A stretch of DNA of 64,000 bases from Candidatus Aenigmatarchaeota archaeon (lineage in GTDB: Archaea > Aenigmatarchaeota > Aenigmatarchaeia > GW2011-AR5): contig JACPAG010000001.1 in NCBI GenBank assembly GCA_016180945.1, forward strand, positions 133,856-197,855, in the 5' to 3' direction. Below are positions 5,748-60,152 of the stretch, piece after piece. Positions within the stretch are counted from its first letter, which is position 1; the number at the start of each line of letters is the position of its first letter. The position numbers and the translations under genes were made by a program. The notes beneath the pieces were generated by a model. It saw nothing but the letters and a program-made list of their open reading frames with translations. It did no database searches and had not been told where the DNA came from.

Positions 5748-5874
5748 AAAATGGGATACGACTGGAAGGAGCAAAAATTATAATATGGCGATCGACTTTC
5801 GTGCAGAAGCCAAGAGGCTTCTGACGAATCAAGAAAGCAGGGCTTTCTTTATTTTGCCGGAGCAAAAAGGGGAT
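5748..5874 (+). repeat. Tandem A-type elements with a nested B twin-hairpin (5800-5853)
   Basis: Removing 5800-5853 restores TCGAC-TTTTTGC-CGGA-GCAAAAA-GGGGAT as at 27554; ATACGACTGGAAGGAGCAAAAATTATAA recurs near 60042. Confidence 0.8.
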
Positions 5875-6681
5875 ATGCAGATAACAAAATATAAATGGGA
5901 CAACTGGGAGCCGCATTTAGTCCTGAAATCGGGCAATGAAACCAGGAAAATCCGTCTTTTCGGCAATCACTCGTTCGTGCTGGGCCAGAAGACATGCACG
6001 GGATTCTTTTCCGGCGGCAAAAGTTATGAATGCCCGGGAAAGAGAAAGCTGGACTACGGCCAGCAGTGCAACGAATGCAAAATCCGCGACCTCTTCGCGC
6101 TCTGTATGCAGTGCACCGGCGAGAAATGCATAAACGAAAAAAGGCGGGCGGAGTGCGAGAAAGAAAACTACTTTATCTACCTGGCGGCATTCGATTCCCT
6201 GCTCAAAGTAGGCATCTCATACGAATACCGCTTTTTAGAGAGGCTTGTCGAGCAGGGCGCGGATTTCGGCGCCAAGATAGGACGCGTAAAAGACGGGCTT
6301 GCAGTCCGGGACATAGAACAGAAAATAATGCAGAATCTGGACATAGTAGACCGCGTAAGGGGGGCTGAAAAACACAAGATGCTGTTTTGCAACCCCAACA
6401 CAGCAGCAGCCAATATTTCCAGGGCAATCGCGGCCCTTAGGAAAGATTTCAGCCAGTATCTCATCAGGCCGGAAATATACGATATGCGTTCTTACTACAG
6501 GCTGCACAACGTTTTCCTGAATCCGTCTGCAATGGCGATAAAGGACAACACGGAACTGTCCGGCGAAATCGTGGCAGCAAAAGGCAACATTTTTGTTCTC
6601 AGGAAAGGCGGCGAATTTTTCTCGATTAACGCCCATGAGATTATAGGGCGTGAGATTCTGGGCAACGGGCTCTCTATTTAA
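5875..6681 (+). CDS. DUF2797-like Cys-rich protein
   Basis: Cys clusters, IYLA...KVGIS and EQGA; ATG follows the GGGGAT of the repeat, so the first 30 codons of the track ORF are repeat-derived. Confidence 0.7.
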   Translation: MQITKYKWDNWEPHLVLKSGNETRKIRLFGNHSFVLGQKTCTGFFSGGKSYECPGKRKLDYGQQCNECKIRDLFALCMQCTGEKCINEKRRAECEKENYFIYLAAFDSLLKVGISYEYRFLERLVEQGADFGAKIGRVKDGLAVRDIEQKIMQNLDIVDRVRGAEKHKMLFCNPNTAAANISRAIAALRKDFSQYLIRPEIYDMRSYYRLHNVFLNPSAMAIKDNTELSGEIVAAKGNIFVLRKGGEFFSINAHEIIGREILGNGLSI

Positions 6682-6702
6682 AAATTGACTGCTTATTGTT
6701 AT

Positions 6703-6894
6703 TATAATATGGCAATCGACTCGCGGAGTGTAGCGACCAAAAATTACACGCGAAGACCAAAGGTCTTCGGTGCATCGAAGAACTGTTGACAGTTCTTCGA
6801 ATGTAAAATGGCGCTCGACTTCGCGCAAAATACAGAGTATTTTGGCGACTCAAGAAGGCTTTGCCTTCTTCGAGTTGCCGGAGCAAAGGGGAGT
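6703..6894 (+). repeat. Composite of two A heads and two B twin-hairpins (6746-6803, 6822-6875)
   Basis: Removing the B units restores AAAAATTA|TAAAATGGC and CTT|TGCCGGAGCAAAG. Confidence 0.8.
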
Positions 6895-7548
6895 ATGAAC
6901 GTTTTCAAGCACATAGCCGTTTTTAACGGCATAGGCTACGATTCCAACGTTTTCCTGCTGGACGGGGAAATTCTTGTCGACACGGGTTCCGGTACCAGGT
7001 TTCCGATTTTGAAAAAAGGAATAGGGGAAAAATCAGACGCCTCTGAGATAAAAACAATTGTCAATACGCACTGCCACTTTGACCATTGCGGCGGCAACAA
7101 GAAATTCCGTTCGTGGCTGGGCGCGGAAATAGCCGCCCACAGGCAGGACAAGCCGTTTATCGAAAGCGGCATCAATACGATGGCAGAGCTGTTCAAGGAA
7201 AAGCCGCTGGTATCGACTGTCGACAAGGAACTGAAGAACGGCTCCAGGCTTAAAACGGCAAATTTCTCTTTTGAAGTTATAGCCACTCCGGGCCACACTC
7301 CCGGATCCGTATGCCTCTACGAGAACGAGCACAAAATACTTGTTTCAGGCGATACGCTGTTCGAGGACGGCATCGGCCGGGCAGACCTGCCGGGCGGCAG
7401 CAACGCGAAGCTTTACAACTCCTTGGAGAAGCTTTCCAGGTACCATATAAATTATCTTCTTCCGGGTCATGGCAATGTAAAAGTCGGCGGCGTGGATTTT
7501 CTCATAAAACAGATGCTGTCCGCAATGAACAGGGACCTGAAGATTTAA
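6895..7548 (+). CDS. MBL-fold metallo-hydrolase (glyoxalase II-like)
   Basis: THCHFDH, TPGHTPG, GD and PGHG motifs. Confidence 0.85.
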   Translation: MNVFKHIAVFNGIGYDSNVFLLDGEILVDTGSGTRFPILKKGIGEKSDASEIKTIVNTHCHFDHCGGNKKFRSWLGAEIAAHRQDKPFIESGINTMAELFKEKPLVSTVDKELKNGSRLKTANFSFEVIATPGHTPGSVCLYENEHKILVSGDTLFEDGIGRADLPGGSNAKLYNSLEKLSRYHINYLLPGHGNVKVGGVDFLIKQMLSAMNRDLKI

Positions 7549-7568
7549 AAATATTTTCAGTTAATTAG

Positions 7569-7662
7569 TAAAATGGCACTCGACTCAAGCAAAGACCAAA
7601 AGGTCTTTGATGCATCAAAGGCTTCTACAGAAGCCTTTGCTTGAACCGGAGGTTAGGGGAGA
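7569..7662 (+). repeat. A element with nested B (7586-7643)
   Basis: Removing B restores CTCGA-CTAACC-GGA-GGTTAG-GGGAG. Confidence 0.8.
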
Positions 7663-8130
7663 ATGAAGAAAAAGAAAAAAGAATACACGTTCTTTTGGGA
7701 GCAGCCTCTTGAGCAGGCAAAAGAGATAAAGGACCTTTTCAGCGAGCCGTTCGAGTTCAAGTTTACAGTCCCGAGATTCACGTTTCCGGAAATCAGGTTC
7801 GAGAAGACAATACCGGTCAATGTCGCAGAAACAGGCACAGAAATAATAATCAAGGCGGAAGTGCCCGGCTACAAAAAGAACGAGATAAGCATCAATGTGA
7901 CGGAAAACACGATAGAAGTTTCAGCCTTCAGGAAGCAGGAAAAAACAGAAAAAACAAAAGGCGTCTACAGCCAGGAAAAGAGCGCAGGCGCGGTGAAAAG
8001 AGCCTTCACTTTACCGGCAAAGGTCGACCCTGCAAAGGCCGAAGCAAAGCTGGAAGAAGGGCTCCTCATTGTTGTTCTCCCAAAACTTTATCCTGACCAG
8101 AAAAAAAGAAGGCGGCTGGAGATTAAGTAG
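7663..8130 (+). CDS. Small heat-shock protein (Hsp20)
   Basis: AEVPG, RAFTLP and EGLLIVVLPK motifs; C-terminal LEI. Confidence 0.9.
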   Translation: MKKKKKEYTFFWEQPLEQAKEIKDLFSEPFEFKFTVPRFTFPEIRFEKTIPVNVAETGTEIIIKAEVPGYKKNEISINVTENTIEVSAFRKQEKTEKTKGVYSQEKSAGAVKRAFTLPAKVDPAKAEAKLEEGLLIVVLPKLYPDQKKRRRLEIK

Positions 8131-8271
8131 GTTGTTATTTCAAAATTCTTGTTACAATGTACCCGACATATGCTATCAGAACTGCCAAAAGTGAAATTAC
8201 ATAGCTAAGTCCGCTTGCAGGATAGAAAATAATTTCGTAGACTATTAATAAAAATAACGATTTAAACTTGA

Positions 8272-9297
8272 TTAATTTTTATTACATTTTATTATTCTTT
8301 CTTCTTCGTTTACATCAAATTTAACGTCCAAAAACTTCTCGCATACCCATATGTTTGTCAGCGTATGGGCCGTTATTTTCGATACCTTTACCCTGCTTTC
8401 GCCTCTGGCTAAAGCCATGTACGGTATAATCTGGTCGCTCATATGCTCGTCTATCGGCGCATCCGAAGCATGGTTTTCTATTAAATTTGTAATCGCCTCT
8501 TGCGCCACTTTCTCGGCGCTCTTCCCTGGTTCGGCTATTGAATTGCTTCCGATAATAGAGTTCTCATACAGTACAAACAAATCCATCCCGCCGCCGGTAG
8601 AATGCGCATCGACATACTCCGCTTTTATCTCCGGCACAACCTGAAATTCTTTGAACAGCCTTTCTCTGGAATACTTCTGCATCCTCTCCGCGACCTTAGC
8701 CTTTTCCAAATCCTTGCTGGCAACACAAGAACCAAAAACATGCACAGGCTTGCCGCGCTTGACCAGTTCCAGCGGAGCCAGAACAGACGGCAATATTTTC
8801 GCTTCGACTTCGCCCCCGCCCTTTGGGTAGAAACCGTGCCTTATCAGTGTCACTTCTCCTTTATACCCCATTTTCTTTAGTATGTCCAGCGTGGCGTTCT
8901 GGATATACGATATGCTGGGCGCCCACTTGTTTAATGTTCCTCCAATGATTTTTATGTCCAGTTGCGAAGCGCAATGCATGGCAGGTATCATCAGCGCCTG
9001 CAGCACTAGCGCAGCCGAGCCGGCCGTGCCTACGTTTAATGATAGCGACCCGCCTCTTATTTCGTTGGGATAAAATTCTATCGCCGTCGAACCTATTTCA
9101 TTTCCTTTTACCTGTGCATCGCACAGTTTCGCAACCGCGTTCACCGCGGTTGAGTGCTGCGCCCGCAGTCCCTGATTGCGCCGCTTCGCGCGAATGTTAA
9201 TTATTTTGCATGGCTTTCCTGTAACAGCCGATAAAGCCACGGCTATCCGTACTATCGAGCCGCCGCCTTCGCCGTAAGAGCCGTCGATTGAGAGCAT
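8272..9297 (-). CDS. rtcA: RNA 3'-terminal phosphate cyclase
   Basis: DGSYGEGGG, GFYPKGGG, DEHMSDQ and TAHT motifs. Confidence 0.92.
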   Translation of the reverse strand: MLSIDGSYGEGGGSIVRIAVALSAVTGKPCKIINIRAKRRNQGLRAQHSTAVNAVAKLCDAQVKGNEIGSTAIEFYPNEIRGGSLSLNVGTAGSAALVLQALMIPAMHCASQLDIKIIGGTLNKWAPSISYIQNATLDILKKMGYKGEVTLIRHGFYPKGGGEVEAKILPSVLAPLELVKRGKPVHVFGSCVASKDLEKAKVAERMQKYSRERLFKEFQVVPEIKAEYVDAHSTGGGMDLFVLYENSIIGSNSIAEPGKSAEKVAQEAITNLIENHASDAPIDEHMSDQIIPYMALARGESRVKVSKITAHTLTNIWVCEKFLDVKFDVNEEERIIKCNKN

Positions 9298-9366
9298 GAA
9301 AGATACATCAGGCGTAACCTTTAAAAGCCAAATCAGTTTTTAATAGTTTTTTGAGAATTCTATTGG

Positions 9367-9630
9367 ATGCCAACTGCTTCCTCACATGCTGTTTACAGAC
9401 CTCTTAGCCTCCCAGAAAGGGCAAGGGTGGCTGTTAATAGATGGGGTTATTTTATAGTAGACGATGTGCAAGCGCTTCACTTTAATAGATTTCGATGCCC
9501 TGTCGATACTTCTGTTGTTCTAACACCTGTCAAAAGAGTAGAAGGCGATACTTGGTATCTATGGGGTCAGTGCAGGAAATGTGACGGGCATTATCCCATT
9601 TCCACAGAACCAGAAAAACTTAACATCTAA
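9367..9630 (+). CDS. Small hypothetical Zn-ribbon-like protein
   Basis: CPVD...CRKC. Confidence 0.45.
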   Translation: MPTASSHAVYRPLSLPERARVAVNRWGYFIVDDVQALHFNRFRCPVDTSVVLTPVKRVEGDTWYLWGQCRKCDGHYPISTEPEKLNI

Positions 9631-9633
9631 ATG

Positions 9634-10875
9634 TCAAACCTTAATCTCGTCCCCGTTCTTTGGCGCTATCGCCTGTACGGAAGGGAACGCCTTTTCGATA
9701 TCACGCGCAAATTCCTTTGTCTTTTCGCCGTGGATGCAGATGACCGTTTCCGGGTTCAGCTTTTTGATTATGTGCATCAGCCCCGGTCGCCCGGCGTGCG
9801 CACTAAGCTGGAACTGGTCGAGATGGCAGTGGACGTGGAATTTCTCTTCGGCCGTCTGGAAAATCTTTGTCTCCAATAGGTTTCTCCCGGGCGATTCCTC
9901 GACAAGAAAGCCGGTAAACAAAACCTTGCTCTCCGCCCTGTGCTTCATTTCCCGCAGATAATGGATGGCAGGCCCGCCGCCTAGCATGCCGGCCGTTGCG
10001 ATGATTATCGGATAATGCTGCGCTGCCTTTATCCGCGATTCGTGCCCGTGAACCCAGTGGATCTTTTTTAGTATATTTTTCAGCCTCTTTTTGTCTTTGA
10101 GGTGATAGGAGTATTTCGATACTATGTCGCTTGCTTTCTTGGCCATGCCGTCTAGGGCGATTTTATTCGCATACTTCTCCAGTATCAGCAAAACCTCCTG
10201 CGCCCTGCCTGCGGCAAAAACCGGCAGCAGCACCTTCTCCTCGTTGGAGAGCGCCTCTTCTACGTGTTGTTTTAATCGTTCCTCTTCCTTTTCTCGTGGC
10301 GGATGGTTTTTGTAGGAGTATGTAGACTCTGTGATTAGGACATCAGCTGACTCAGGCAATTTACATCCTGCCAGCAGATTGCTTTCTGTAGTTTGGATGT
10401 CTCCTGTGTAGAAAAGCGTCTTTTTGTTTTTAACCAGCGCGCTTGCCGAGCCGGGTATGTGACCGGCATCGTAAAGCATGCAGGAAAATGCTCCGGTCTT
10501 GAATTTCTCCCTGTAAGAAACGCGACGTGTCCCCTTTACCATTTTTTTGATGTCATTTTTAACAAAAGGCACATTGTAACCGTTCTTCTTTCCCACCTTT
10601 ATCGAGTCCTCCAGCAGCATCTTCGACAAATCAAGCGTCACGTCTGTCATGAATGCACGGGGCTTTGTCTTTTCAAACAGTATCGGCAATCCGCCTGAAT
10701 GGTCCAGATGCGCATGGCTCAGTATAATTGCATCCGTTTTTGCCTTAATCGGGTATTGCGGCGGCTCTGGCTGTATCTTGACGCCGTAGTCAAGCATCAC
10801 TTTCGTTTTTCCATCGCTGACGAGGAATGCGCTTCTTCCGATTTCGTGGCCGTTCCCGAGTATAGAGATTTGCAT
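9634..10875 (-). CDS. beta-CASP MBL ribonuclease (aCPSF2-like)
   Basis: SHAHLDHSG, AGHIPG, ESTY, SAHA and HGE motifs. Confidence 0.88.
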   Translation of the reverse strand: MQISILGNGHEIGRSAFLVSDGKTKVMLDYGVKIQPEPPQYPIKAKTDAIILSHAHLDHSGGLPILFEKTKPRAFMTDVTLDLSKMLLEDSIKVGKKNGYNVPFVKNDIKKMVKGTRRVSYREKFKTGAFSCMLYDAGHIPGSASALVKNKKTLFYTGDIQTTESNLLAGCKLPESADVLITESTYSYKNHPPREKEEERLKQHVEEALSNEEKVLLPVFAAGRAQEVLLILEKYANKIALDGMAKKASDIVSKYSYHLKDKKRLKNILKKIHWVHGHESRIKAAQHYPIIIATAGMLGGGPAIHYLREMKHRAESKVLFTGFLVEESPGRNLLETKIFQTAEEKFHVHCHLDQFQLSAHAGRPGLMHIIKKLNPETVICIHGEKTKEFARDIEKAFPSVQAIAPKNGDEIKV

Positions 10876-10939
10876 ATTCTTTATACATTTATGGCGGGTG
10901 TTAAAAAAGGTTTAAAACCTTTTGCGGAAGCAGGAAACT

Positions 10940-11749
10940 ATGGTCTACACGCCGGCGGGTAGGAACAAGCAGCAGCAGGCATTGGATTATTCGAGCAAGT
11001 TCCAGACTCTTCCAAAATTTCAAGAAAGAATGAACCACACTCTGGGTTTATTGAGGTCGTTTTATGTTCCAGAAGAAGAGGTAATCAGTTTCCACGACTA
11101 CCTTATAAGAGAGTGCAGAAATCTGATTACCCGGTCAATATTTGAAGTGCCTTATATAGATAAGTCTTATGCAGGCGGAATGGACGCAACACAAGTTTTC
11201 ATCGAAGTAGGCCAACTGGAAGCAGGAGAAGCACGACTTCCGTTTACTCCAATTCAGAGGGCATATTTGGCTGTATGGGCCAGGGCCGTGTCAGAAAAGT
11301 TGTCAGATATTGCTAACCGTTACAATATGCCGGAATTATCGCCTGCATTTGAAAGATTCCTTCAGGGGGTTTTGAATCCTCCTCAGGCGCCAGCAAAACC
11401 TAAACTTACCGAGCGTTTGATAGGGATGTTTTCAGCCAAGCTGGCGTCGTATGCGATACCTGAGCAGGGAATTACCAGATATACAGGCATGTTCCAGCTG
11501 TATCTTGGCAAATTAAAAGAGATGCGCCCTCAGGCAGAAGTAAGCGCTTTAGAAGACATGAGCCCGGAAGAGTTGCAGGCATTGGGCACAGAAACAGGAA
11601 GATGGTTTCTTGACGCTGCGCTTTACGGCGATACACAACTTACAGAGAGGGCAAGACAGGAATTCCTTGCCAAAAAGGAAGCGCCAAAGCAAGAAGATCC
11701 AAGGTCTCCTTTCCAAAAGCAGATGGACGATTTGTTTGGCGCCAGATAA
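10940..11749 (+). CDS. Hypothetical protein
   Basis: Long ORF with no recognisable motif. Confidence 0.65.
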   Translation: MVYTPAGRNKQQQALDYSSKFQTLPKFQERMNHTLGLLRSFYVPEEEVISFHDYLIRECRNLITRSIFEVPYIDKSYAGGMDATQVFIEVGQLEAGEARLPFTPIQRAYLAVWARAVSEKLSDIANRYNMPELSPAFERFLQGVLNPPQAPAKPKLTERLIGMFSAKLASYAIPEQGITRYTGMFQLYLGKLKEMRPQAEVSALEDMSPEELQALGTETGRWFLDAALYGDTQLTERARQEFLAKKEAPKQEDPRSPFQKQMDDLFGAR

Positions 11750-11812
11750 ACCTGCCCATCAGCCTTATAAACATTGTTCTCCCAATAAAATAAAAATAAA
11801 CAAAGTGATCGT

Positions 11813-12193
11813 GATGAGCAGCCGATATCGTTCAGTCAGCAAGCCACAGAAGGCCTGGGACTGCTTTTACTCAGGGCGCTCAACAAAAACCAGATTCTTA
11901 TTCTGAAGGAAATTTCAAAAAGTAATGGAGAAAGTATAACCAACGTTCTCAATGGAATAAGTAAGGACAATAAGATAGCAATTTCTACTCTTAAATTAAA
12001 TGCCAGAATTCTTAGGAATCTAGGGTTAATCAGGTTTGGCACTAATTCCCATTTCCATTTAACGGAGTTAACAAAACTAGGTCAAAATATTCTTTCCATA
12101 CTTACTTCTCGGAGTAGCCTAACTGGCAAGGCAGCAGTCTGTAAAACTGTGAATCTCGGTTCGAGTCCGGGCTCTGAGACTCAAGGTGAATAA
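11813..12193 (+). pseudogene. Winged-HTH-like ORF whose ATG is out of frame; its 3' end overlaps tRNA-Tyr
   Basis: One frame reads LLLRALNKNQILIL...STLKLNARILRNLGLI...LTKLG to TAA at 12193, but the ATG at 11813 is in another frame. Confidence 0.5.
12108..12179 (+). tRNA. tRNA-Tyr(GTA), intronless
   Basis: Full cloverleaf: CTCGGAG/CTCTGAG acceptor, C1-G72, A73, anticodon loop CTGTAAA, T-loop TTCGAGT. Confidence 0.8.
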
Positions 12194-12214
12194 ATATGAA
12201 GAGTGATAGGCCCT

Positions 12215-12373
12215 ATGGAGAAGTTCGTGCCGTGCAACGATTGCCATGGGCCTTACAAGGAGGCATGCGACCTTCAGTGCCCAAGGTTATATGAAGGACA
12301 AAGAAAATCACAACTGATAGAAACAGAACAAGCAGGTAAAGAATATCGAATGCCAAGACCTTATGAGCACTAG
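12215..12373 (+). CDS. Small Cys-rich protein (52 aa)
   Basis: MEKFVPCNDCHGPYKEACDLQCPR...; below the ORF track cutoff. Confidence 0.4.
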   Translation: MEKFVPCNDCHGPYKEACDLQCPRLYEGQRKSQLIETEQAGKEYRMPRPYEH

Positions 12374-12505
12374 CATCTTTTATTTTTTCTTTTTTATCTA
12401 AGAAGACATTGTAAATGTCTTCTGGATCCATCTTCCAACAAACCACCGACTAAAGTCGATGGTATATAAGAAAGATGTGATATATAGTAAAAACAAAGTG
12501 ATATC

Positions 12506-13585
12506 ATGGACGTAGAAACAAGGCTCCAATTAATAAAATCAGTTGGAGAAGAAGTGATAACAGAACAGGAATTGAGAGAACTTCTGGAAACGAAGGACCA
12601 TCCTGTCGCCTATGACGGCTTCGAGCCGTCGGGACTTTCTCATCTGCCGTTTGGAGTATTCCGCCCGCTGCTTTTGCAAGACTTAGTCAAGGCAGGCATT
12701 CACTTCAAGCTTTACATAGCCGACTGGTTCGGATGGCTGAACAACAAGATGGGCGGCGACCTGGATAAAATAAAGAAGGTCGGCGACTATTTTATTGAGG
12801 TCTGGAAAGCCGCCGGCGTTCGTAATGTTGAGTTTGTCTGGGCGTCTGACATAATGTCAGACCGCGAATACTGGAAGAAGGTCATACTGATTGCTAAAAA
12901 CACAACGGTCAATCGTGCCAACCGGATGCTTACCATCATGGGCCGCACGCAGGGAGAACTCCAGGAAACAGCCCAATACTTCTATCCGATGATGCAGACA
13001 GCGGATATTTTTGCCCTGAGCGCGGATATATGTCAATTAGGGTTGGACCAGCGCCGGGCGAACATGCTCGCCCGGGAAGTCGGGCCAAAGCTCGGCTGGT
13101 GGAAGCCTGTTGTCGTGTCACATCACATGCTGATGGGGTTGGAGGGCGTGAAGCAGCCGGAAGGATTCGAGGAAAACAGGAAGATGGACGTGGAAATCTC
13201 GTCAAAAATGAGCAAGAGCAGACCACAAACAGCAGTCTTTGTCCACGACAGCAGGGAAGAAATAAAGAAAAAAGTAATGGGTGCGTTCTGCCAGCCGAAA
13301 CAAACAGATAACAGCCCCATGCTTGAATATTCAAAACACCTCATATTCAGACGCTTCGGTAAAATGAAAATAGAAAGGACGCAAAAATTCGGCGGCGACA
13401 TAGAGTTCAACAGTTACGAAGAGCTGGAAAAGGCGTTTAGGGACGGCAGCGTCCATCCGTTGGATTTGAAGAACGCTGTCGCAGAAAATCTGGATGCGAT
13501 GATAAAGCCGGTAAGGGAACATTTCGAGCGCGGCAATGCCAAAGAGCTTTACGAATTTGTGAAGAGGCAGGAAGTGACGAGATAA
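12506..13585 (+). CDS. tyrS: Tyrosine-tRNA ligase
   Basis: YDGFEPSG, YPMMQ, LGLDQ and KMSKS motifs. Confidence 0.95.
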   Translation: MDVETRLQLIKSVGEEVITEQELRELLETKDHPVAYDGFEPSGLSHLPFGVFRPLLLQDLVKAGIHFKLYIADWFGWLNNKMGGDLDKIKKVGDYFIEVWKAAGVRNVEFVWASDIMSDREYWKKVILIAKNTTVNRANRMLTIMGRTQGELQETAQYFYPMMQTADIFALSADICQLGLDQRRANMLAREVGPKLGWWKPVVVSHHMLMGLEGVKQPEGFEENRKMDVEISSKMSKSRPQTAVFVHDSREEIKKKVMGAFCQPKQTDNSPMLEYSKHLIFRRFGKMKIERTQKFGGDIEFNSYEELEKAFRDGSVHPLDLKNAVAENLDAMIKPVREHFERGNAKELYEFVKRQEVTR

Positions 13586-13639
13586 AGCTTACAAGGATTT
13601 TGAAGATATTTAGAATATGGGGAAAACGGCGAAAATATC

Positions 13640-13918
13640 CTACTCGACATGCACAAGCCTTGCCCTGCTGCGAAAAATTACATGCGCCTGTTCAGAGTAA
13701 TAATTACCCTCTACATCATCATACGGAAACGCATCATAGTTTATAGGAGCCAAATGCCCTGCTTGGGATAATCTGCCCATAGGCAAACCCATAGATCTAT
13801 GGACAACTATGTAATCAACCGGAGAACTTTTTCCAAAACCGAAAATGTCCGGTTCTTCTAAGCTATAGCCAGCCAACACAAAATCACCGGCGAGCTGCAA
13901 TAATCTGAAATTGGGCAT
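13640..13918 (-). CDS. Hypothetical protein
   Basis: 92-aa ORF. Confidence 0.45.
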   Translation of the reverse strand: MPNFRLLQLAGDFVLAGYSLEEPDIFGFGKSSPVDYIVVHRSMGLPMGRLSQAGHLAPINYDAFPYDDVEGNYYSEQAHVIFRSRARLVHVE

Positions 13919-44795: not shown

Positions 44796-44940
44796 ATCTT
44801 CGAATTCCACTTTTTCACTGTTTTAAAACAGTGGAATTCGGGATGCAAGCAAAAGACAAAGTCTTTTGATGTGCCAAACAACGGATGTTGTTTGAGCATA
44901 AAAAACACTGCTATAGAATAATTAATTGCAGTGGTTTTTC
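44796..44940. repeat. Hairpin cluster including a B twin-hairpin (44846-44898)
   Basis: CAAG-CAAAAGAC-AAA-GTCTTTTG-ATG-TGC-CAAACAAC-GGAT-GTTGTTTG-A-GCA. Confidence 0.7.
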
Positions 44941-47592: not shown

Positions 47593-47677
47593 CACGCAGA
47601 AAACAAAGTTTTCTGGTGCACCAACTCGAGGAAAGCAAAGCTTTCCTGAGTCTCCAGAGACCTTTGGTCTCTTGGAG
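47593..47677 (+). repeat. Partial B plus complete B twin-hairpin overlapping a gene start
   Basis: CAC-G-CAGAAAAC-AAA-GTTTTCTG-GTG then CTC-G-AGGAAAGC-AAA-GCTTTCCT-GAG...AGAGACC-TTT-GGTCTCT. Confidence 0.75.
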
Positions 47678-51591: not shown

Positions 51592-51712
51592 ATCCCCTCA
51601 CCAACAACTTGACGCACCGCTGTGCGTCGATTTGTTCCGAGTCGATCGCCACACGCGAAGAACCAGAGGTTCTTCGGTGCATCAAAAGACACTGTCTTTT
51701 GATTGTTTTATA
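51592..51712 (-). repeat. A element carrying a C palindrome (51611-51628) and an inverted B (51652-51705)
   Basis: Removing B restores TATAAAA|TGGCGATCGAC; ends GAGGGGAT then ATG. Confidence 0.8.
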
Positions 51713-52171: not shown

Positions 52172-52177
52172 TCTTTA

Positions 52178-53233: not shown

Positions 53234-53245
53234 TTTCGAAACACC

Positions 53246-53530
53246 TTATTCCCTTTCCTCCGTTATCGCGCCGCACGGGCATTCGCGCAGGCATATCAAA
53301 CAGCCGGTGCATACGTCATAGTTTATCTTCGGAAAGCCCTTCTCTATTACAATGGCATTTTCGGGGCAGGCGGCATAGCAGCCGTACGTCTTTTTGCATT
53401 TTTTCAGCTCCAGCCTCGGCCTGAAAACCCGCACCGGGAAAACTTCCGCCTGCGTCGGTTTCTTCTCTTTTATGCCGTCTTCCGCAATCATGGTACTCAT
53501 CACAATTTTCTTTCTTTTCTCAGAAGACAT
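53246..53530 (-). CDS. porD: Oxidoreductase delta subunit / 4Fe-4S ferredoxin (start may be 53500)
   Basis: CTGCLICLRECP; first cluster motif incomplete. Confidence 0.8.
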   Translation of the reverse strand: MSSEKRKKIVMSTMIAEDGIKEKKPTQAEVFPVRVFRPRLELKKCKKTYGCYAACPENAIVIEKGFPKINYDVCTGCLICLRECPCGAITEERE

Positions 53531-53626
53531 TCGTCTTCTGGAAACTCCAGAAAGCTTTGCTTTCTGCGAGTTAAACCCAAGGGCGTTTCTTTATCCCCTA
53601 ATTTCGTTAGTCGATAACCATATTAC
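53517..53626 (-). repeat. A element (53592-53626) followed by a B twin-hairpin (about 53517-53571)
   Basis: TAATATGGTT-ATC-GA-CTAA..TTAG-GG-GAT; CTC-G-CAGAAAGC-AAA-GCTTTCTG-GAG...CAGAAGAC-GAAT-GTCTTCTG. Confidence 0.75.
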
Positions 53627-53689
53627 TTATATATTTTCTTTTCCCAAGGCTTTTCTTTTTAAAAAGAAAAGGCTTAAAGAAAAGGGCTT

Positions 53690-54211
53690 TTACATCCGCT
53701 TTACTTTTTTGAACCCCTCGTCCATGGCTGCAAGATTCTCTTTCTGGTTCTGCCTGATTTCAATCTCCGCGGCTCTTTTCATGGCGCGCAGCGAGATTTT
53801 AGTGAATATTTTGCAGAGCCCCCCCAGCATGGCCGTATTCGGTATTGGTTTCAGCAGCGTTGAAAGCCCTATGTCCGTTGCGTTAACATAATAGTTTTTG
53901 ACGTCCTTCTTCTTTATGCCGCCGAATCTTTCAGGCGCATTGAACAGAACAGCACCCGCCCTGACGTCCTTTATATCCCCGAGGAGCGTTTTGTCCATCA
54001 CAAGCAGGAAATCCGGTTCGGTGAGGTCTTTAGATAATATAGGCTTTTTGTCCGTCTTGACGTAGCTTGTTATGGGCGCAATCCTGGGCTCCTGCTTCCA
54101 GAACGTGAAATCCTGCACGTAAAAGCCGGAAAGAAAACAAGCCCTGTCGACTACCCGGCTGGCTATTTCCACGCCCTGCCCGCCCCTCCCGTGGATGCGG
54201 AATGTGTACAT
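53690..54211 (-). CDS. porG: Oxidoreductase gamma subunit
   Basis: HGRGGQG and PNTAMLG motifs. Confidence 0.85.
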   Translation of the reverse strand: MYTFRIHGRGGQGVEIASRVVDRACFLSGFYVQDFTFWKQEPRIAPITSYVKTDKKPILSKDLTEPDFLLVMDKTLLGDIKDVRAGAVLFNAPERFGGIKKKDVKNYYVNATDIGLSTLLKPIPNTAMLGGLCKIFTKISLRAMKRAAEIEIRQNQKENLAAMDEGFKKVKRM

Positions 54212-54361
54212 ATTCCAATAAATTGGGCGCAACAGCTTTTAAAACTAGTGCTTTTTCTGCGAAAATTTGCTTAGAAACACCTGAAATGATGTTGTAGTTT
54301 AATTATTCTTATTTTCTTTTGACTGCAGGCTACTTTTCTTTCTAAAAGAAAAGGAGCCTAA

Positions 54362-54571
54362 TGGGCCGGGCAGGAATCGAACCTGCAGCCTTCGCGGTGT
54401 AAACGCGACGTCATACCAATTTTGGTTCCCAAAATACAATTCACATTAGTTCTTTTGGGGTTCACCAAGACCTTTTCGAACACATTGACGCAACGAAGAC
54501 TGACGCACTGCTGTGCGTCTATTTGGGTTGCGTCGGTTTGTTCAAAGGGATTGGTACTAGACCACCAGCCC
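54362..54571 (-). tRNA. tRNA-Val(TAC) with a ~138-nt D-arm intron (about 54421-54558)
   Basis: GGGCTGG/CCGGCCC acceptor, TCGCG-TTTACAC-CGCGA anticodon arm, TTCGATT; intron junctions uncertain by a few nt. Confidence 0.85.
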
Positions 54572-54574
54572 AAG

Positions 54575-54692
54575 CGCTGGGAGAGAGATTTGAACTCTCG
54601 TGTGCTTTCGCACACAGGTTGTTTACAAGTCGTTTTCCGCAGAAAAGGGCTGTAGCAAACCTGCGCCTTGGACCAGACTTGGCTATCCCAGC
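54575..54692 (-). tRNA. tRNA-Ser(GCT) with a 32-nt 37/38 intron (54621-54652)
   Basis: Long variable arm, G73, BHB central helix TTGC/GTAA. Confidence 0.9.
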
Positions 54693-54756
54693 AATAAAAC
54701 TTTATATATTACCGAAGCATATTAATAAAAGATTTATCTAAGACGAAGGTGGTTTG

Positions 54757-55050
54757 ATGGCTATAAGTGTCAAGAATTTCTCGGATATGGCGCGCAAGGA
54801 CGTCTTCACCAGCAGGGGTATCTATTGCGGAAAGGTGGTCGATATCGGTCTGGACTTTGACAAATTCCGGGTCAAATCGGTTGTCGTGGACGCCGTAAGG
54901 GGGTCGCACTTCGCATCCATTGTCGGCGACAAGAAAGGCGTTGTTGTGCCCTATGCAATGGTCCAGTCTGTGGGCGATATCGTGTTAATCAAGCACGTGC
55001 CTCTGGCGGCAGTGGAGACCGAGACGGAAGAAGCGCCTGTCGAGGCCTGA
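54757..55050 (+). CDS. PRC-barrel domain protein
   Basis: KDVFTSRGIYCGKVVD...VPYAMVQSVGDIVLI. Confidence 0.8.
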   Translation: MAISVKNFSDMARKDVFTSRGIYCGKVVDIGLDFDKFRVKSVVVDAVRGSHFASIVGDKKGVVVPYAMVQSVGDIVLIKHVPLAAVETETEEAPVEA

Positions 55051-55125
55051 TTCTCTTTTGCTCAATAAACGCTAGAAAGTAGGCGTGCCAATAGATTATC
55101 ATTCAAGGAAAAATAAATAATAATA

Positions 55126-55192
55126 ATAATATGGCACTCGACTTGAAACAGACTGACGCACAGCAGTGCGTCTAGTTATTGAGGGGAGGTAT
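55126..55192 (+). repeat. A element with a nested C palindrome (55155-55172)
   Basis: TAATATGGCA-CTC-GA-CTT...GAG-GG-GAG. Confidence 0.75.
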
Positions 55193-55516
55193 ATGCCAGC
55201 CGACAAAGAAAAGCCCGTCGAAGAAAAGGCAAAGCAGCTGATGGACCTGAGGACGCTGATGCTGACGTCGATAACGTCAGCCCTGGCTTTGGTCGTCGGC
55301 TTGTTCTGGAACGACGCCATAAAATCTGCCATCGAAAAGCTTGTCCCGCAGGGCGGGGACGTTGCCGCAAAGTTTGCGTCAGCAATCATAGTAACTATCA
55401 TAGTTGTGGTGGTTGTTTACCTTCTTTTCCGCGCGCAGCGGATAGCAGCAGGGCAGCTAAGAGAAATGGCAGAATTGAAAGATAAATTAAGGAGAAGGAC
55501 GAAAGGAATAGTATAA
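55193..55516 (+). CDS. Small membrane protein (DUF5654-like)
   Basis: ITSALALVVGLFWNDAIK. Confidence 0.7.
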   Translation: MPADKEKPVEEKAKQLMDLRTLMLTSITSALALVVGLFWNDAIKSAIEKLVPQGGDVAAKFASAIIVTIIVVVVVYLLFRAQRIAAGQLREMAELKDKLRRRTKGIV

Positions 55517-55645
55517 GTATGGAAAAAAGTAAGGAAAAGGCAATGGTTCTCCTTTCGACTTAGCACATCCCCAGCCTACTTACCTTTTCCCTTTGCTTCT
55601 GCTTATTAATATTCTCAGTCAAGCAAATAATAACAACTTTGCAAT

Positions 55646-55766
55646 GCTCCCGTCGTCTAGTCCGGTCAAGGATAGGAGCCTTTCGCTTTTGTATAATATG
55701 GCAGTCGACTTTTGCCATAGCAAAAGGGGATAGCTTCGGACGCGAGTTCAAATCTCGCCGGGAGCA
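55646..55766 (+). tRNA. tRNA-Glu(TTC) with a 46-nt 37/38 intron (55686-55731) consisting mostly of an A element
   Basis: GCTCCCG/CGGGAGC acceptor; GGAGC-CTTTCGA-GCTTC anticodon arm after splicing. Confidence 0.88.
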
Positions 55767-56956
55767 TCATACTCAAAACTTAGATAGTAGTTCTTCTCAC
55801 TAGCAGCACAATGGCTGGGTGGCTACAATTGTAGTCACCCAGAGGCAAAACTACTTATATTTGTAGTCACCTATAGTTATTATGCATATAGAAAAAAGGC
55901 GTGTCGGCAAGAGGACAAAATACTATCTTGCCCATGCTCTCAGGGACGGCAGGCAAGTCAAAAAAATAAGGGTTTATTTGGGTGCTGATAGCAAAGCCGT
56001 TAAGGGGAGGAGGGCTTCTGCCGAGCAAATAATCATGGAAAGAATTAAGGCATATGAAATAATTTCCGATCCTTTTCGCCATGCGCTTAATACAAGGGAA
56101 ATTGAAGATATCAAGTCCCTGGAAGCAAAGGGCGGCATAAGAATAAAGCATCTAAGCGAAGATGATTGGAAAACATTTATAGAATCCTTCGTTTACGACA
56201 CAAATGCCATCGAAGGGTCTTCCGTCACATTTACAGAAGTAACAGAAATACTGGAAAAGCAGGAGTGGCCCAAGGAGAGGGAGAAATGGGAGATATCGGA
56301 AACGTACGGCGTGAGGGATGCCATACAGCTGATAAGAAGCACTAAGGAGCATTTGTCATTGGAGCTCATGAAAGAGCTTCATAATGTCTGCTTCAGGAAT
56401 TCCAAGCCGTTTGCAGGCAAATTCCGTGAGAAAGGTCAGGAAGTTGCCGTTGTCGACGGGCAGGGAAGGGTAATTCATAGGGGCGCCCCTTCAGGCATGG
56501 TCGTCAAGCTTCTCAAGGACCTAGTTTCATGGTACAGCAAGAACAGGAGAAAATATCCTGCGATTGTCCTGGCAGTCGTGGTGCATAATCAGTTCGAGAC
56601 TGTACACCCTTTTGCTGACGGCAATGGACGGGTCGGAAGGCTTTTGCTCAACAATATTCTTCTCCGGCACAACAAGCCGCCGGTGAATATAGAACTGAAA
56701 AACAGGAAGAAATACTATGCAGCGCTGGGAGAATATCAAGAAAATGGAAATATAAGGCCGATGATAGAGCTTATACTCAAGGAATACAGGAATTTGAAGA
56801 AACTGCTGAAGAAATGACGCCAAAGGCGTCTGTCTACAGTTGAATACAGCCCATGAAAATGTAGTCACCTAGCACAGTTCTCTTACCGGCATAAATCCAT
56901 TGTTGTTCAGCCAAAAGTGGGCGCCTGTTTTTTCATCCGGGGTTCGCCGGGAGCAT
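55755..56956. mobile_element. Fic islet at the tRNA-Glu 3' end
   Basis: TCGCCGGGAGCAT at 55755-55767 is repeated at 56944-56956. Confidence 0.6.
55882..56817 (+). CDS. Fic-domain protein
   Basis: HPFADGNGRVGR and TNAIEG motifs. Confidence 0.9.
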   Translation: MHIEKRRVGKRTKYYLAHALRDGRQVKKIRVYLGADSKAVKGRRASAEQIIMERIKAYEIISDPFRHALNTREIEDIKSLEAKGGIRIKHLSEDDWKTFIESFVYDTNAIEGSSVTFTEVTEILEKQEWPKEREKWEISETYGVRDAIQLIRSTKEHLSLELMKELHNVCFRNSKPFAGKFREKGQEVAVVDGQGRVIHRGAPSGMVVKLLKDLVSWYSKNRRKYPAIVLAVVVHNQFETVHPFADGNGRVGRLLLNNILLRHNKPPVNIELKNRKKYYAALGEYQENGNIRPMIELILKEYRNLKKLLKK

Positions 56957-57712
56957 TTATTTTTTCATCATCTTTTCAAGATACTCTTTGTCTTTTATCG
57001 TCTGCTCAATCGGATTTCTTTTCCCTTCAAACTCGACGACAAGATAACCATTATAATTCTGTTTCTTCAGCAGTTTTATCAGCTCAGTCCACGGCACTTC
57101 TCCTTTTCCCAGCGGCGGGAAAGAAAACAGTTTTATGGAATCTTTAGCATGGACATGGACAAAATATTTGCCCAATTTTGTGGCGGCCTCTAATGTATCC
57201 ATACCAGAAAGGTTGAAATTCGCCGGGTCGAAATTCAGCCGGAGTTTCGGAATTTCTTTGAGCAGCGCCGAAACATCGCCTATCGTGCTTATTGCATGCA
57301 GCGGGCTGTTTTCCAGAGCAATTGTTATTCCATTTGCCGCGGCATAGTCGACAGCCCTTGCCATATTTTCTATCATCGCTTGTTTATCGGCCCCTTTTCC
57401 GGAATGAGTGCAAATTATGTTAATCCCCGCGGCATGCGCATATTCCACTACTTCTCTAAATCGTTTCATCTTACTCTTCTCAAAAAAATTCGTGTATCCG
57501 CCCAAGGAAGTGATGGATAAGTTCAATTCGTCTGCCAAGTCGCTTAATTGTTCTGGCCCTAAAGTCATCTGCTCGGCGTCTTCGCACATGACCTGCACGC
57601 CTTCAAATCCCATAGAAGAAATTTTTTCCAGCGCCCGTTTTGTATACCTGTATCTTTTGATAGCGCCTAGTTTAGCCAGCCCCATAAAAGAATAAGTTCC
57701 TAATTTAGCCAT
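56957..57712 (-). CDS. Sugar phosphate isomerase/epimerase (TIM barrel)
   Basis: LEN, FDPAN, HAKD, G.G.V and VEFE motifs. Confidence 0.8.
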   Translation of the reverse strand: MAKLGTYSFMGLAKLGAIKRYRYTKRALEKISSMGFEGVQVMCEDAEQMTLGPEQLSDLADELNLSITSLGGYTNFFEKSKMKRFREVVEYAHAAGINIICTHSGKGADKQAMIENMARAVDYAAANGITIALENSPLHAISTIGDVSALLKEIPKLRLNFDPANFNLSGMDTLEAATKLGKYFVHVHAKDSIKLFSFPPLGKGEVPWTELIKLLKKQNYNGYLVVEFEGKRNPIEQTIKDKEYLEKMMKK

Positions 57713-57909
57713 GCTTGATGGAAACGGCAGGAAGTTGAAGTTGTAGTCCAGGCATCCGAGTTTCATGGCTTTAATAAAGACAACAAGTTTTAAATCTAAG
57801 AATTCCATCCTCTTTTGCATCTCGGAGTGTTGTAGTTAGAGTGTTGAATCTAGGGTGATAGGTAGGTTTAAAAAACGCCGCCCAGCATTAAGATATAGAG
57901 GTGAATAAA

Positions 57910-57945
57910 ATGGAAGCATCAATAAAGTTCAGAAAGCGGTTTTAA
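57910..57945 (+). CDS. Candidate 11-aa micropeptide MEASIKFRKRF
   Basis: GAGGTGA SD and TTTAAAAA box near 57867. Confidence 0.3.
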   Translation: MEASIKFRKRF

Positions 57946-58041
57946 TGTGGTAACGAAACGAATGAATGAGTGATTTATTCATTGATTTATTCATTTATTG
58001 ACTTCCTAATCCTTATCCATACTTCTTCTCTACAAAGAAAA

Positions 58042-58326
58042 TCAAACGTCCTGAAGCCTTACCTTTTTCACAACGATATAATTTTCTACGTAGTTTAATG
58101 TCGCCTTTGGCGCAATTCTGGCTATTTTTTTCTTTGCCGTTCTTTGGTCCAGATGCTGGTTCTCTATCTTAACTATATCCTTTTTGCCCAGCGTTTCGCT
58201 GTCAATATTCATCAGTATGGATACGACGCCTTTTGGTTTCAGTGCTTCTACCACTTTCGTTGCTTTGCCGGCTGTTATGTGGTCTATCACTGTGCCGGCT
58301 TCTATATCAGTAATTCGTTTTTCCAT
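58042..58326 (-). CDS. pyrI: Aspartate carbamoyltransferase regulatory chain, allosteric domain only
   Basis: GTVIDHI, KKDIVKIE and APKATLN; no Zn-binding C-terminal domain. Confidence 0.8.
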   Translation of the reverse strand: MEKRITDIEAGTVIDHITAGKATKVVEALKPKGVVSILMNIDSETLGKKDIVKIENQHLDQRTAKKKIARIAPKATLNYVENYIVVKKVRLQDV

Positions 58327-58439
58327 GATAAAAATACGCCAGAAAAGGATTAGAAGATTAGATAAAAGATTTTATCATGGAATAGGTTTCGGTGATAAGT
58401 TTAAAACTAATAAATTAGTAAAAGCAATTGCGGGAGCCA

Positions 58440-58617
58440 GCGGGGATAGTAATTGTTAATGGAATGTTAATAATTACACCCATCGCCTAGCCTGGTCAAT
58501 GGCGCAAGGTTGAGGAAGCCCTTTTCCGCTTCGGCGCAAAAGCGCTTGCGGAAAATATTAGGGCTGTAAAGGCCTTGTTCCTTAGTGGATTCGGGAGTTC
58601 AAATCTCCCTCCCCGCA
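58440..58617 (+). tRNA. tRNA-Leu(GAG) with two introns: 8/9 (58448-58483) and 37/38 (58516-58571)
   Basis: GCGGGGA/TCCCCGC acceptor, CAAGG/CCTTG anticodon stem, long variable arm; both inserts fold as relaxed BHB motifs. Confidence 0.85.
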
Positions 58618-58685
58618 TGAGAAGAATTGTATATTGTCAAAGCCCGTTCGAAAGCTTCTTAAATGTATATACATAGTATATACGT

Positions 58686-59471
58686 ATGACAAGCGTGGTT
58701 AAGGCGGTCAAGAGGTACGGAAACTCGGGAGGCGTTTACGTGCCCAGCAAATGGATAGGCGGGAAAGTAAAAGTGGAGTTGATAGAGGAGCCCCTGGACC
58801 CTAGGCATGTTCTGGCCAGAATACCGCTGGAGCACGTGATCAGCGCGATTTTATACGGCTCTTACGCGAGAAAAGAGTCGCTGGAAGGCTCGGACATGGA
58901 CATATTGCTGGTTGTCGACGACGACTCCAAGATAAGCATAGCGCCGGAGCTGAAACAAAAATACGATATACAGATAAAGAGCCTGAGAAATCTCAGAAAT
59001 GCCTTGGTACACGACCCGGTTTTTTACAAAATAATCAAGGATGAAGCTGTAGCTATTTTAAATCATCAGTTTCTCGACAGCTTAAAAAAAGAGGCGCCAA
59101 AAACAATTGATATAAAGAAAAGAATTGAACTGGCCGAATCCTCCCTGAACATAACAAAAGAAATACTAAAAATTGGCGGGGATATTGCAAATCTGGTTTA
59201 CCCGCTTATAATGCGCCTGAAAGAGATTCTTCTGATAGAATATTTCCTTGAAGATAAGAAATATTCGACTAAGGCACTGAAGCACGAGATTCTGGATTGT
59301 GGAATAACCTCGAAAGAATTTTCTCTGCTGATGGATATATACAGAACATCAAGGAATGGCAAAAGGATTCCAAAAACCCTATTGTCAACAGATACAATAA
59401 CAAAAATAACATTGCTCCTGGAGAATAAGATACAGTATGTCAAGCAAAAAGCGCGCGAAAAAAGGGATTGA
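58686..59471 (+). CDS. AbrB/DUF2080-like domain plus minimal nucleotidyltransferase (TA-associated)
   Basis: YGNSGGVYVP and LYGSYAR...SDMDILLV. Confidence 0.8.
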   Translation: MTSVVKAVKRYGNSGGVYVPSKWIGGKVKVELIEEPLDPRHVLARIPLEHVISAILYGSYARKESLEGSDMDILLVVDDDSKISIAPELKQKYDIQIKSLRNLRNALVHDPVFYKIIKDEAVAILNHQFLDSLKKEAPKTIDIKKRIELAESSLNITKEILKIGGDIANLVYPLIMRLKEILLIEYFLEDKKYSTKALKHEILDCGITSKEFSLLMDIYRTSRNGKRIPKTLLSTDTITKITLLLENKIQYVKQKAREKRD

Positions 59472-59643
59472 GTCCTTGGAGAAGCAGATAGAACTGCATA
59501 AAAGCAAGCTAAAGGCGGCAGAAGAAAGCGGAAACATCGGCTTGGCTAATTACTATGAAAAGGAAATAGAACATTTCGAGCAAGCAAAGGAAAAGCTGGA
59601 GCGCAGAGCAATGCCGAGGGCGAAAAGGAAAAAGATGCCCTGA
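59437..59643 (+). CDS. Small basic coiled-coil protein, probable partner of the MNT gene
   Basis: Overlaps the MNT stop; KGIESLEKQIELHKSK. Confidence 0.6.
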   Translation: MSSKKRAKKGIESLEKQIELHKSKLKAAEESGNIGLANYYEKEIEHFEQAKEKLERRAMPRAKRKKMP

Positions 59644-59794
59644 ATGTGCTATCCGAATATTTATATATAGGGGCAATCGCAATAGTTGAATTATAGTGAA
59701 ACCAGAAAAGAATCGGTATATTAATTTCTGGTTTTACATATAGTCAGCAAGGATGTAATATGCCGTTTATTTCCTTGCATGACTATAGATAAGT

Positions 59795-60013
59795 ATGGCA
59801 TTCCATCTTTCTGTGAACGTGCACAGTTTTCCGAAGTGCAGCAGGTGCGGCAACGACATGGCGCTGGTACTGGTTTCGGAAACGGAAACAAGAATCGGCG
59901 AAGGAAAATCAGGCGTCTTCAGCAGCTCGCCCAAGTCCACGCAGTCGGAAGAGGATACGGACAAGGCATTCTTCGGCTGGAAATGCAGCTGCGGCAATAG
60001 TATTACCGCATAA
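59795..60013 (+). CDS. Small Zn-ribbon protein
   Basis: CSRC...WKCSCG. Confidence 0.6.
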   Translation: MAFHLSVNVHSFPKCSRCGNDMALVLVSETETRIGEGKSGVFSSSPKSTQSEEDTDKAFFGWKCSCGNSITA

Positions 60014-60032
60014 GACATTTTTATTATGATTA

Positions 60033-60152
60033 ATAATAGGAATACGACTGGAAGGAGCAAAAATTATAAAATGGCTATCGACTCAAGCAAAGACCAGAGG
60101 TCTTTGATGCATCAAAAGACTTTGTCTTTTGATTGTGCGGAGGCAAGGGGAT
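60033..60152 (+). repeat. Tandem A heads with nested B (60084-60135)
   Basis: Removing B restores ATC-GA-CTTGC-GGAG-GCAAG-GG-GAT. Confidence 0.8.

Follow-up and report, generated by a model that had tools for sequence, protein, structure and literature searches.

A Twin-Hairpin Repeat of 52–58 bp in an Aenigmatarchaeota Genome: Insertion without Target Duplication and a Possible PATE-Like Nature

Introduction

What are the paired short hairpins that recur in the gene spacers of a small groundwater archaeon, and do they move? The question is raised by a stretch of 64,000 nucleotides from a Candidatus Aenigmatarchaeota archaeon (assembly GCA_016180945.1, contig JACPAG010000001.1, positions 133,856 to 197,855 of the forward strand), called the window below, in which an earlier sequence-only reading had listed nine copies of a unit of two hairpins, here named repeat B. 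The unit was taken for an unrecognised, ultra-small mobile element that enters other hairpins precisely and in either orientation, with features of HUH single-stranded DNA chemistry. Host-dependent archaea with a genome of about 1 Mb would be expected to keep it streamlined; contrary to this expectation, about a thousand perfect hairpins fill the spacers here.

The analysis presented below suggests that B is a non-autonomous mobile repeat of 52–58 bp acting at the level of DNA, for which a terminal-only element resembling the palindrome-associated transposable elements (PATEs), moved by a Y1 transposase of the IS200/IS605 type, is the best candidate. We regard this reading as probable, although only with reserve. 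B is near the minimum size for a mobile unit, and its smallness, sharp ends and readable target (CTT^TG, with ^ marking the junction) make it a convenient handle for finding the mobilising enzyme. It also lets one ask how repeats reshape leaders and protein sequences in DPANN archaea. In practice, such repeats break short-read assemblies, create false long open reading frames (ORFs) and can be confused with RNA genes.

Architecture and Distribution of Repeat B

The genome of the window (987,615 bp in nine contigs, 83.65% complete) was scanned, blind to the earlier coordinates, for pairs of perfect stems, each of 7 bp or more, with loops of 3–6 nt and a gap of 2–12 nt between them. In the window the scan returned exactly nine places, the same as those first listed, which confirms all nine copies (Table 1). 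Genome-wide, 186 distinct twin pairs were found, against none when the entire genome was shuffled once by a first-order Markov model; the raw hairpins at this stage numbered 1514 in the genome and 303 in the shuffle, and the perfect hairpins left after merging 984 and 304, respectively. Perfect hairpins make up 7% of the bases outside ORFs.

Each hairpin of B is closed by a base helix of 2–4 bp with one bulged base on the outer strand. The layout of the bulges was tested on 184 twins, with a chance expectation of about three for each 3-bp test. In 92 of them the first hairpin had a base helix of 3 bp with a single bulged nucleotide on the 5' side, the second had the mirror arrangement with the bulge on the 3' side in 85, and both features occurred together in 63, while the opposite polarity on both hairpins was never seen (0/184). 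Neighbouring bulged units followed the order 5'-bulged, then 3'-bulged 55 times and the reverse order never. The fixed bulge positions ascribed to B are thus far from what chance would give. The base helices vary (TGC, CTC, CAC, ATC and others), and in an alignment of 16 copies every cell of helix 1 (100%) was paired while 8 of its 11 pairs had changed on both sides, which upholds the earlier description of a sequence that varies within a structure that persists. A search with a degenerate pattern gave 28 exact matches, 26 of them with all four free pairs complementary.

Since MAFFT alone misaligned the second hairpin, the covariance model R1 was built from 16 geometry-matched copies instead, and it is biased to one subfamily; at E ≤ 0.01 it recovers eight of the nine window copies and misses that at 7586. 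The layout of B is its own reverse complement, and R1 scores both strands nearly equally (e.g., 72.6 versus 71.7 bits). As the architecture reads alike on both strands, orientation exists only for sequence subfamilies. The claim that B occurs in either orientation is nearly without meaning for the architecture as a whole, and the copy at 53517, formerly assigned to the minus strand, scores higher on the plus strand.

The covariance-model search proposed together with the sequence-only reading showed that B extends beyond the present genome. R1 matches were found in 48 of the 70 genomes of the order, namely in 34 of 43 within the family and 13 of 26 outside it, with counts per genome that range from 0 to at least 83 and differ within genera. 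B copies are not conserved at orthologous places; for example, a 190-nt cluster of genome G014 has no counterpart in the orthologous spacer of G045, the flanks of which are 78% identical. Twins of the same style were also present at 2 of 80 metagenome loci (L008 and L019; best protein match 60% identical).

Table 1. Copies of repeat B and boxes of leader element A in the window (window positions; R1, covariance model)
Feature	Position	Strand	Basis
B in the leader A hairpin of a DUF2797 gene (ATG at 5875)	5800..5853	+	twin scan; R1 57.8 bits; gene by Pfam
B between AAAATTA and TAAAATGGC, 5 nt upstream of the A box at 6808	6747..6802	+	twin scan; R1 32.2 bits
B, ...ACTC-hairpin-CGAGT subfamily, in the A hairpin of an MBL-fold gene (ATG at 6895)	6822..6875	+	R1 66.8 bits
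B in an A hairpin; junction GACT^...^AACC	7586..7643	+	R1, no match at E ≤ 0.01
B in a spacer, inside a larger repeat (...CAGTGGAAT.CGGGAT..TAAAAAACACTGC)	44846..44898	.	twin scan; R1 30.4 bits
B, CGAGT subfamily, forward on the minus strand	47625..47677	-	R1 69.2 bits
B between TATAAAA and TGGC of the minus-strand A box (51641-51652)	51652..51705	.	R1 29.6 bits
B, CGAGT subfamily, in a spacer; junction TTTCTT^...^TAAACC	53517..53571	+	R1 65.2 bits (+), 58.1 bits (-)
B in an A hairpin upstream of an ORF at about 60133; junction GACT^...^TGCGG	60084..60135	+	R1 35.0 bits
A box ATGGCNNTCGAC hosting B	5785..5796	+	regular-expression listing
Other A boxes	6709, 6808, 7573, 27547, 55131, 55698, 60071	+	regular-expression listing
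Other A boxes	34104, 51641	-	regular-expression listing

Clean Insertion into Leaders and Genes

The boundaries of B can be read from a second repeat, the leader element A, which has the form (A/T-rich TATAA)-ATGGCNNTCGAC-[variable hairpin]-GGGGA-N'N', stands 0–5 nt before a start codon and has an NN that covaries with N'N'. The exact A box occurs 97 times in the present genome and 0–3 times in each of 30 relatives. A perfect end-to-end hairpin is found in 62 of 76 simple A elements, and among 20 A elements with an insert of 55–82 nt, 16 regain such a hairpin after one deletion; 15 of these 16 carry one twin, and the deletion measures 51–60 nt. The ambiguity of the junctions is 0 nt in three cases and 1–2 nt in the rest, confined to T runs, which argues that B makes no target duplication.

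Four copies of the window illustrate this, as a single deletion of 52–58 nt restores the perfect end-to-end leader hairpin in each. At 5800, removal of 54 nt gives TTTTTGCCGGAGCAAAAA, with a 2-nt ambiguity in a T run, and at 6822, where the junction reads GACTT^...^TGCC, removal of 54 nt gives TTTGCCGGAGCAAA. At 7586 a single 58-nt deletion restores TAACCGGAGGTTA and is unique, meaning that no base is duplicated at the junction; at 60084 the restoring deletion (52 nt, giving TTGCGGAGGCAA) is likewise single and unique, and sister composites of this copy occur at contig positions C3:24834, C7:21038 and C7:131051. The copies at 6746 (6747 in Table 1) and 51652 split the A/T-rich stretch before the A box. 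A visual comparison with the consensus that precedes other A boxes, ...AAAATTATAAA-ATGGC..., fits clean insertion in both cases, at about -8 and -1 from the box; at 51652 a CACG-CGAAGAACC unit faces the box, opposite to the arrangement at 6747. Removal of B had been said to regenerate A in six cases, and the strict deletion bears this out for four, the other two agreeing by eye only. A further instance is the outer twin of a nested composite, the empty form of which is present at three loci and the filled form of which is longer by exactly 53 nt between GCTTTT and TG. Precise insertion without target duplication is thereby seen in 15 leader elements, four of them with window copies, and in these empty and filled paralogs.

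The remaining copies of the window lie outside leaders. In a paralog of the repeat unit around 44846, at C1:5397, the corresponding place is taken by a twin whose stems differ. The copy at 53517 has a near-identical counterpart at C7:162805, and that at 47625 abuts a single hairpin (47593–47623) and is flanked on the minus strand by ...CTTCTT^...^TGGTGCACC.

Although crude ORFs cover 85% of the genome, 129 of the 186 twins lie outside them, and the remaining twins are mostly in start-codon extensions or short spurious ORFs. Only two B copies are truly within genes (C5:33502 and C8:83759), both in frame and without stops. The simple in-gene twin encodes 19 extra residues that are absent from six of six orthologs, while the larger in-gene composite encodes about 60 extra residues; orthologs were found in 26 of 43 family genomes and lack them. 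The insert of about 60 residues matches only other repeat copies of the present genome, and in two of those copies the frame contains stops. Neither in-gene copy has repeat homology in its flanks. The clean insertion in paralogs, the absence from orthologs at these two sites and the nesting in other copies support the view of B as an ultra-small mobile element.

The gene with the larger composite (locus L126, C8:83220-84548, minus strand) encodes a membrane protein without a Pfam family match. Its in-frame insert of about 180 nt, lacking in the orthologs, is a composite repeat of three hairpins bounded by CAAAGACATTG and CAATGTCTTTG.

With regard to leader A itself, it is private to the present genome among the 31 searched and occupies 5785–5874 and 12 other places in the window; its hairpins are pyrimidine-first, opposite to the purine-first stems of B. 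A further repeat, 'C', has a hairpin core GACGCAC-NNNN-GTGCGTC within a longer AACAAAC...GTTGTT stem, occurs in the window at 51611–51628, 55155–55172, 16636, 31907 and 54502, is also found inside A hairpins, and nests in itself.

Target Sequence and Nesting

The CGAGT subfamily (...ACTC-hairpin-CGAGT) allows orientation to be defined and flanks to be compared. In the present genome its left flank is mostly CTT or TTT and its right flank mostly TG. A survey of 51 loci in relatives, from about 15 genomes and with some paralogs among them, yielded 26 forward CGAGT-type copies, the left flanks of which were CTT (18), TCT (4), TTC (3) and TTT (1), and the right flanks TG (19), TT (6) and CT (1). 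Their contexts included the arms and loops of hairpins, the A leader and plain spacers. A CGAGT copy lying opposite to the CTT^TG motif was never found, either in the present genome or at the 51 loci of relatives; orientable copies number only 4–5 per near-closed relative. Insertion in one orientation 3' of a short oligonucleotide was found for the CGAGT subfamily only, the other subfamilies being less clear.

The sequence-only reading held that B targets other hairpins. In a strict nesting test, deletion of the twin restored a spanning hairpin in 35 of 186 twins as compared with 40 of 901 shifted controls (a looser test of restoration, with 84/186 versus 106/540, was too permissive and was replaced). 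The junctions of the nested copies fell in 5' arms (14), 3' arms (12), loops (5) and edges (4), and this spread over both arms and the loops leaves no structural rule for targeting. Many stems end in ...CTTTG and A hairpins begin with GAC-TTTGC, which accounts for most of the seeming preference. Targeting of hairpins is consequently not supported as stated; for one subfamily it is better read as a short sequence target, CTT^...^TG, used in a fixed orientation.

A Candidate Mechanism and Its Weak Points

In the reading that we favour, B enters DNA cleanly and without target duplication, at least one subfamily doing so at CTT^TG in one orientation, and accumulates where it is tolerated: in gene spacers, in leader A, in other copies and, rarely, in frame in genes. 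Composites of B are then copied again and recombined. Movement would probably proceed as folded single-stranded DNA that is cut and rejoined ('peel and paste'), with an enzyme acting in trans that recognises both hairpins and cuts at their feet. The best candidate for such an enzyme may be a Y1 (HUH) transposase of the IS200/IS605 type, and if Y1 is the mover, B would be a terminal-only, PATE-like element that is now orphaned in the present genome. The stems might stay perfect in either of two ways: imperfect hairpins may not be mobilised, or replication may copy one arm from its partner through template switching at quasi-palindromes.

HUH chemistry is plausible but unproven for B. It is compatible with the lack of duplication, the hairpins, the target in the 5' flank and the fixed orientation; it is less easily reconciled with the state of the present genome and with the ends of known insertion sequences, which are described below. 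The survey of co-occurring HUH genes, suggested earlier as a check, gave a divided answer: Y1 was detected in 24 of the 70 genomes of the order and is commoner in B-rich (18/31) than in B-poor (6/39) ones, and it is lacking in many of the richest; the genomes surveyed are incomplete. The sole Y1_Tnp match in the present genome is an IS200-type remnant of 29 C-terminal residues.

This remnant (locus L001, 1501–1640; C4:20707-20846) is followed by a GC-rich hairpin, CCACCGCC...GGCGGTGG, and similar CCACC hairpins head larger repeat units containing twins. The TnpB zinc-ribbon domain (Cas12f1-like_TNB) was not found in the present genome, the only one searched for it. Genes bracketed by twins were considered as transposase candidates and set aside, the 12 bracketed ORFs being ordinary genes or spurious.

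Several observations weigh against the mechanism above. No intact Y1 transposase was found in the present genome at its 83.65% completeness. The association of Y1 with B corresponds to a naive odds ratio of 7.6, in which kinship is ignored and B counts saturate at a ceiling of 83. Among the 18 genomes with at least 30 R1 matches, eight have no Y1 match and three have fragments only, and this set of B-rich genomes with fragments or nothing includes G003, assembled in 2 contigs, and G012, which is 97% complete. Conversely, five genomes with a near-full Y1 have fewer than 10 R1 matches. Matches to OrfB_IS605, IS110 DEDD and serine recombinase (resolvase) were absent from the B-rich genomes G000, G003, G004 and G012. 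At the six tnpA loci of relatives, the flanking hairpins are GC-rich and unlike B, and none of the six is flanked by twins. IS605-type ends, as presented in PMC3119063, are asymmetric, with a longer distance on the 5' side, whereas the hairpins of B lie at its very ends and have mirrored bulges.

The number of copies is a further point of this kind, as much of it comes from the copying and recombining of composites. Every B subtype found in A is tied to a single A-hairpin sequence and a single position, resulting in four or five A+B families. At least six occurrences of the composite of an outer twin with a nested B share their wider flanks (seven copies of the unit were counted), and the copy at 47625 is a hybrid of two units or a truncated form of this composite, its right half being identical to the composite copies and its left half different. 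Independent insertions are accordingly far fewer than copies. Finally, no empty allele was seen at the level of reads, and contigs of four DNA runs contained no usable joint at any B.

The DNA runs are nevertheless informative about assembly. In a near-identical run, contigs stop at three of the five B copies of the examined stretch, and in a relative of about 88% identity one contig has 32 nt in place of the window's 180 nt around 44846, with boundaries that are not clean. Several contigs of the present assembly start or end inside hairpin clusters (C4:15, C8:216644, C9:51384, C7:182991 and C6:14675). These contig ends, together with the unitigs that stop at B, indicate that the repeats limit assembly.

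Alternative Explanations

The strongest alternative, which we hold to be unlikely although it deserves careful weighing, is that B is immobile now or was so always, and that a small number of old insertions multiplied as larger units were copied, gene-converted and recombined, the stems being kept perfect through arm-to-arm template switching. The few A+B families, each with one hairpin sequence and one position, the recurrent composite with its constant flanks, the hybrid at 47625 and the B-rich genomes without known transposases would all follow naturally. Copying of larger units does not readily explain why the CTT^TG junction and its orientation recur in unrelated contexts in about 15 genomes, why near-identical twins adjoin unrelated genes, or why the in-gene copies stand alone, with no repeat homology around them.

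Somewhat more speculative, and in our opinion doubtful, is the idea that B is the minimal substrate of a hairpin-recognising system other than IS200/IS605, either new or recruited from the housekeeping enzymes of replication or repair, that cleaves bulged hairpins at their base and pastes 53-nt units at CTT^TG in one orientation. If this were true, such a system would be active across a DPANN order whose B-richest genomes have no Y1, OrfB_IS605, IS110 DEDD or serine recombinase matches, and the units that it places between a promoter and its start codon would reshape the leaders of one gene in ten.

B could also be a module of RNA, either a self-folding leader insert or an intron-like piece that is cut by the archaeal splicing endonuclease and spread through RNA, which we find improbable. 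Many copies are indeed found immediately before start codons, within a leader whose flanks covary, and the fold of B draws its two ends together. The organism also splices much, as suggested by insertions of 52, 95, 57 and 701 nt in the 16S rRNA gene and a 34-nt intron in a tRNA gene, and an RNA route was once proposed for mitochondrial double-hairpin elements on the grounds that they lack duplications (as related in PMC2800124). Inspection of the junctions, however, led us to reject a bulge-helix-bulge intron: the bulges are of 1 nt, the flanks vary while B is constant, and no motif of 3 nt, 4 bp and 3 nt is present. Nor is there an excess of wobble pairs. Perfect 9-bp stems number 311 versus 12 in the control, those with a G-T wobble 58 versus 37 and those with an A-C mismatch 55 versus 40, with no preference for G-T over other mismatches, and T-G pairs account for 2 of 328 in A hairpins. 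Furthermore, the architecture and the R1 scores do not tell the two strands apart, copies do not persist at orthologous places, both in-gene copies are open and in frame, which splicing would not need, and no B-like structure was seen in the small 16S inserts. Given the strand-symmetric layout, the lack of wobble excess and of bulge-helix-bulge motifs and the open in-frame gene copies, B is read as an element of DNA that is tolerated rather than spliced.

That twins arise in situ through replication errors, i.e., fold-back or template switching at short inverted repeats, is highly improbable, because despite the perfect stems with concerted changes on both arms, the frame around them that is often itself palindromic and the mutual complementarity of the two bulged bases in 35 of 54 distinct copies, near-identical 53-nt units with sharp, repeatable ends occur at many unrelated places, have a fixed flank motif and orientation, and belong to a family common to an order.

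Some RNA genes of the genome deserve mention in their own right. The 16S rRNA gene (window 61422–64000, running past the window end) contains a further large insertion besides those listed, and two ORFs in its inserts (62306–62953 and 63212–63826) match the LAGLIDADG_3 family. The tRNA gene, at 54575–54692 on the minus strand, is 118 nt long with its insertion in the anticodon region, and was matched by Rfam and not by ARAGORN. At C2:207647 and C7:149688, twins adjoin sequences resembling the T-arm and 3' half of tRNAs (GGTTCAAATCC...).

Comparison with Known Systems

Several families of short repeats share some of the properties of B. The repetitive extragenic palindromes of bacteria and their mosaic or paired forms (REP/BIME, REPIN) are short, occur in hundreds of copies and in inverted pairs, and are tied to a Y1 HUH enzyme (RAYT). 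B resembles them as a short, extragenic, paired and inverted palindrome of many copies; unlike them, it has no conserved head tetranucleotide and no Y1 gene flanked by the repeats, and its host is an archaeon. The palindromic elements of Rickettsia persist in frame within protein genes; they are of about 100–150 bp, bacterial and composed of a single hairpin. The in-frame copies of B at C5:33502 and C8:83759 are comparable, with only two cases. A classical miniature inverted-repeat transposable element was rejected, as B makes no target duplication and its ends are the base helices of the hairpins rather than shared terminal repeats.

The double-hairpin elements of Allomyces mitochondria also comprise two hairpins without flanking duplications; according to the account in PMC2800124, in part relating Paquin et al. 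2000, they are not removed from transcripts, reside in spacers and tolerated parts of genes, and are patchily distributed in close relatives. In the light of that account the likeness to B is one of form only, since these elements belong to organelle genomes and have no sequence relation to B. The SMR-A elements of Haloquadratum, as described in the sections of PMC3119063 that deal with them, are of about 110 bp, make no target duplication, are mobilised by an unknown enzyme and prefer to insert into near-terminal palindromes of other elements. They thereby provide a precedent for elements that land in hairpins and, like B, leave no duplication; unlike B, they carry inverted repeats at their termini and strongly favour a single class of host element (PMC3119063).

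The closest precedent is to be found in the terminal-only PATEs of Haloquadratum walsbyi (52-bp HqIRS46 and ISHwa23 forms), so far as PMC3119063 describes them. In that description PATEs have near-terminal palindromes, no terminal repeats, no duplications and a targeting sequence of 4–6 bp. B corresponds to them in being archaeal, of about 52 bp, non-coding and built of two palindromes and in lacking both inverted terminal repeats and target duplication, and the 5'-side target of the CGAGT subfamily is the counterpart of their short targeting oligonucleotide on the 5' side (PMC3119063). There are differences as well. PATEs can be traced by sequence to IS605-type transposons and their palindromes are alike, forming a 22-bp direct repeat (PMC3119063), whereas the two hairpins of B differ from each other, have mirrored bulges and touch the ends of the element; the ends of B are also unlike those of six IS200/IS605 copies of related genomes, and the sequence kinship expected of a PATE was not seen.

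The word 'unrecognised' in the sequence-only reading can be kept in part: no description of such repeats in DPANN or Aenigmarchaeota was found in the literature covered, and very similar 52-bp terminal-only PATEs are already in print (PMC3119063). The parallel may extend to the enzyme. The 52-bp terminal-only PATEs show strain-specific insertions although the IS200-type genes of Haloquadratum are all reported as pseudogenes (PMC3119063), so they are apparently still mobilised despite the decay of these genes, and the genome of B has likewise kept only a remnant of Y1.

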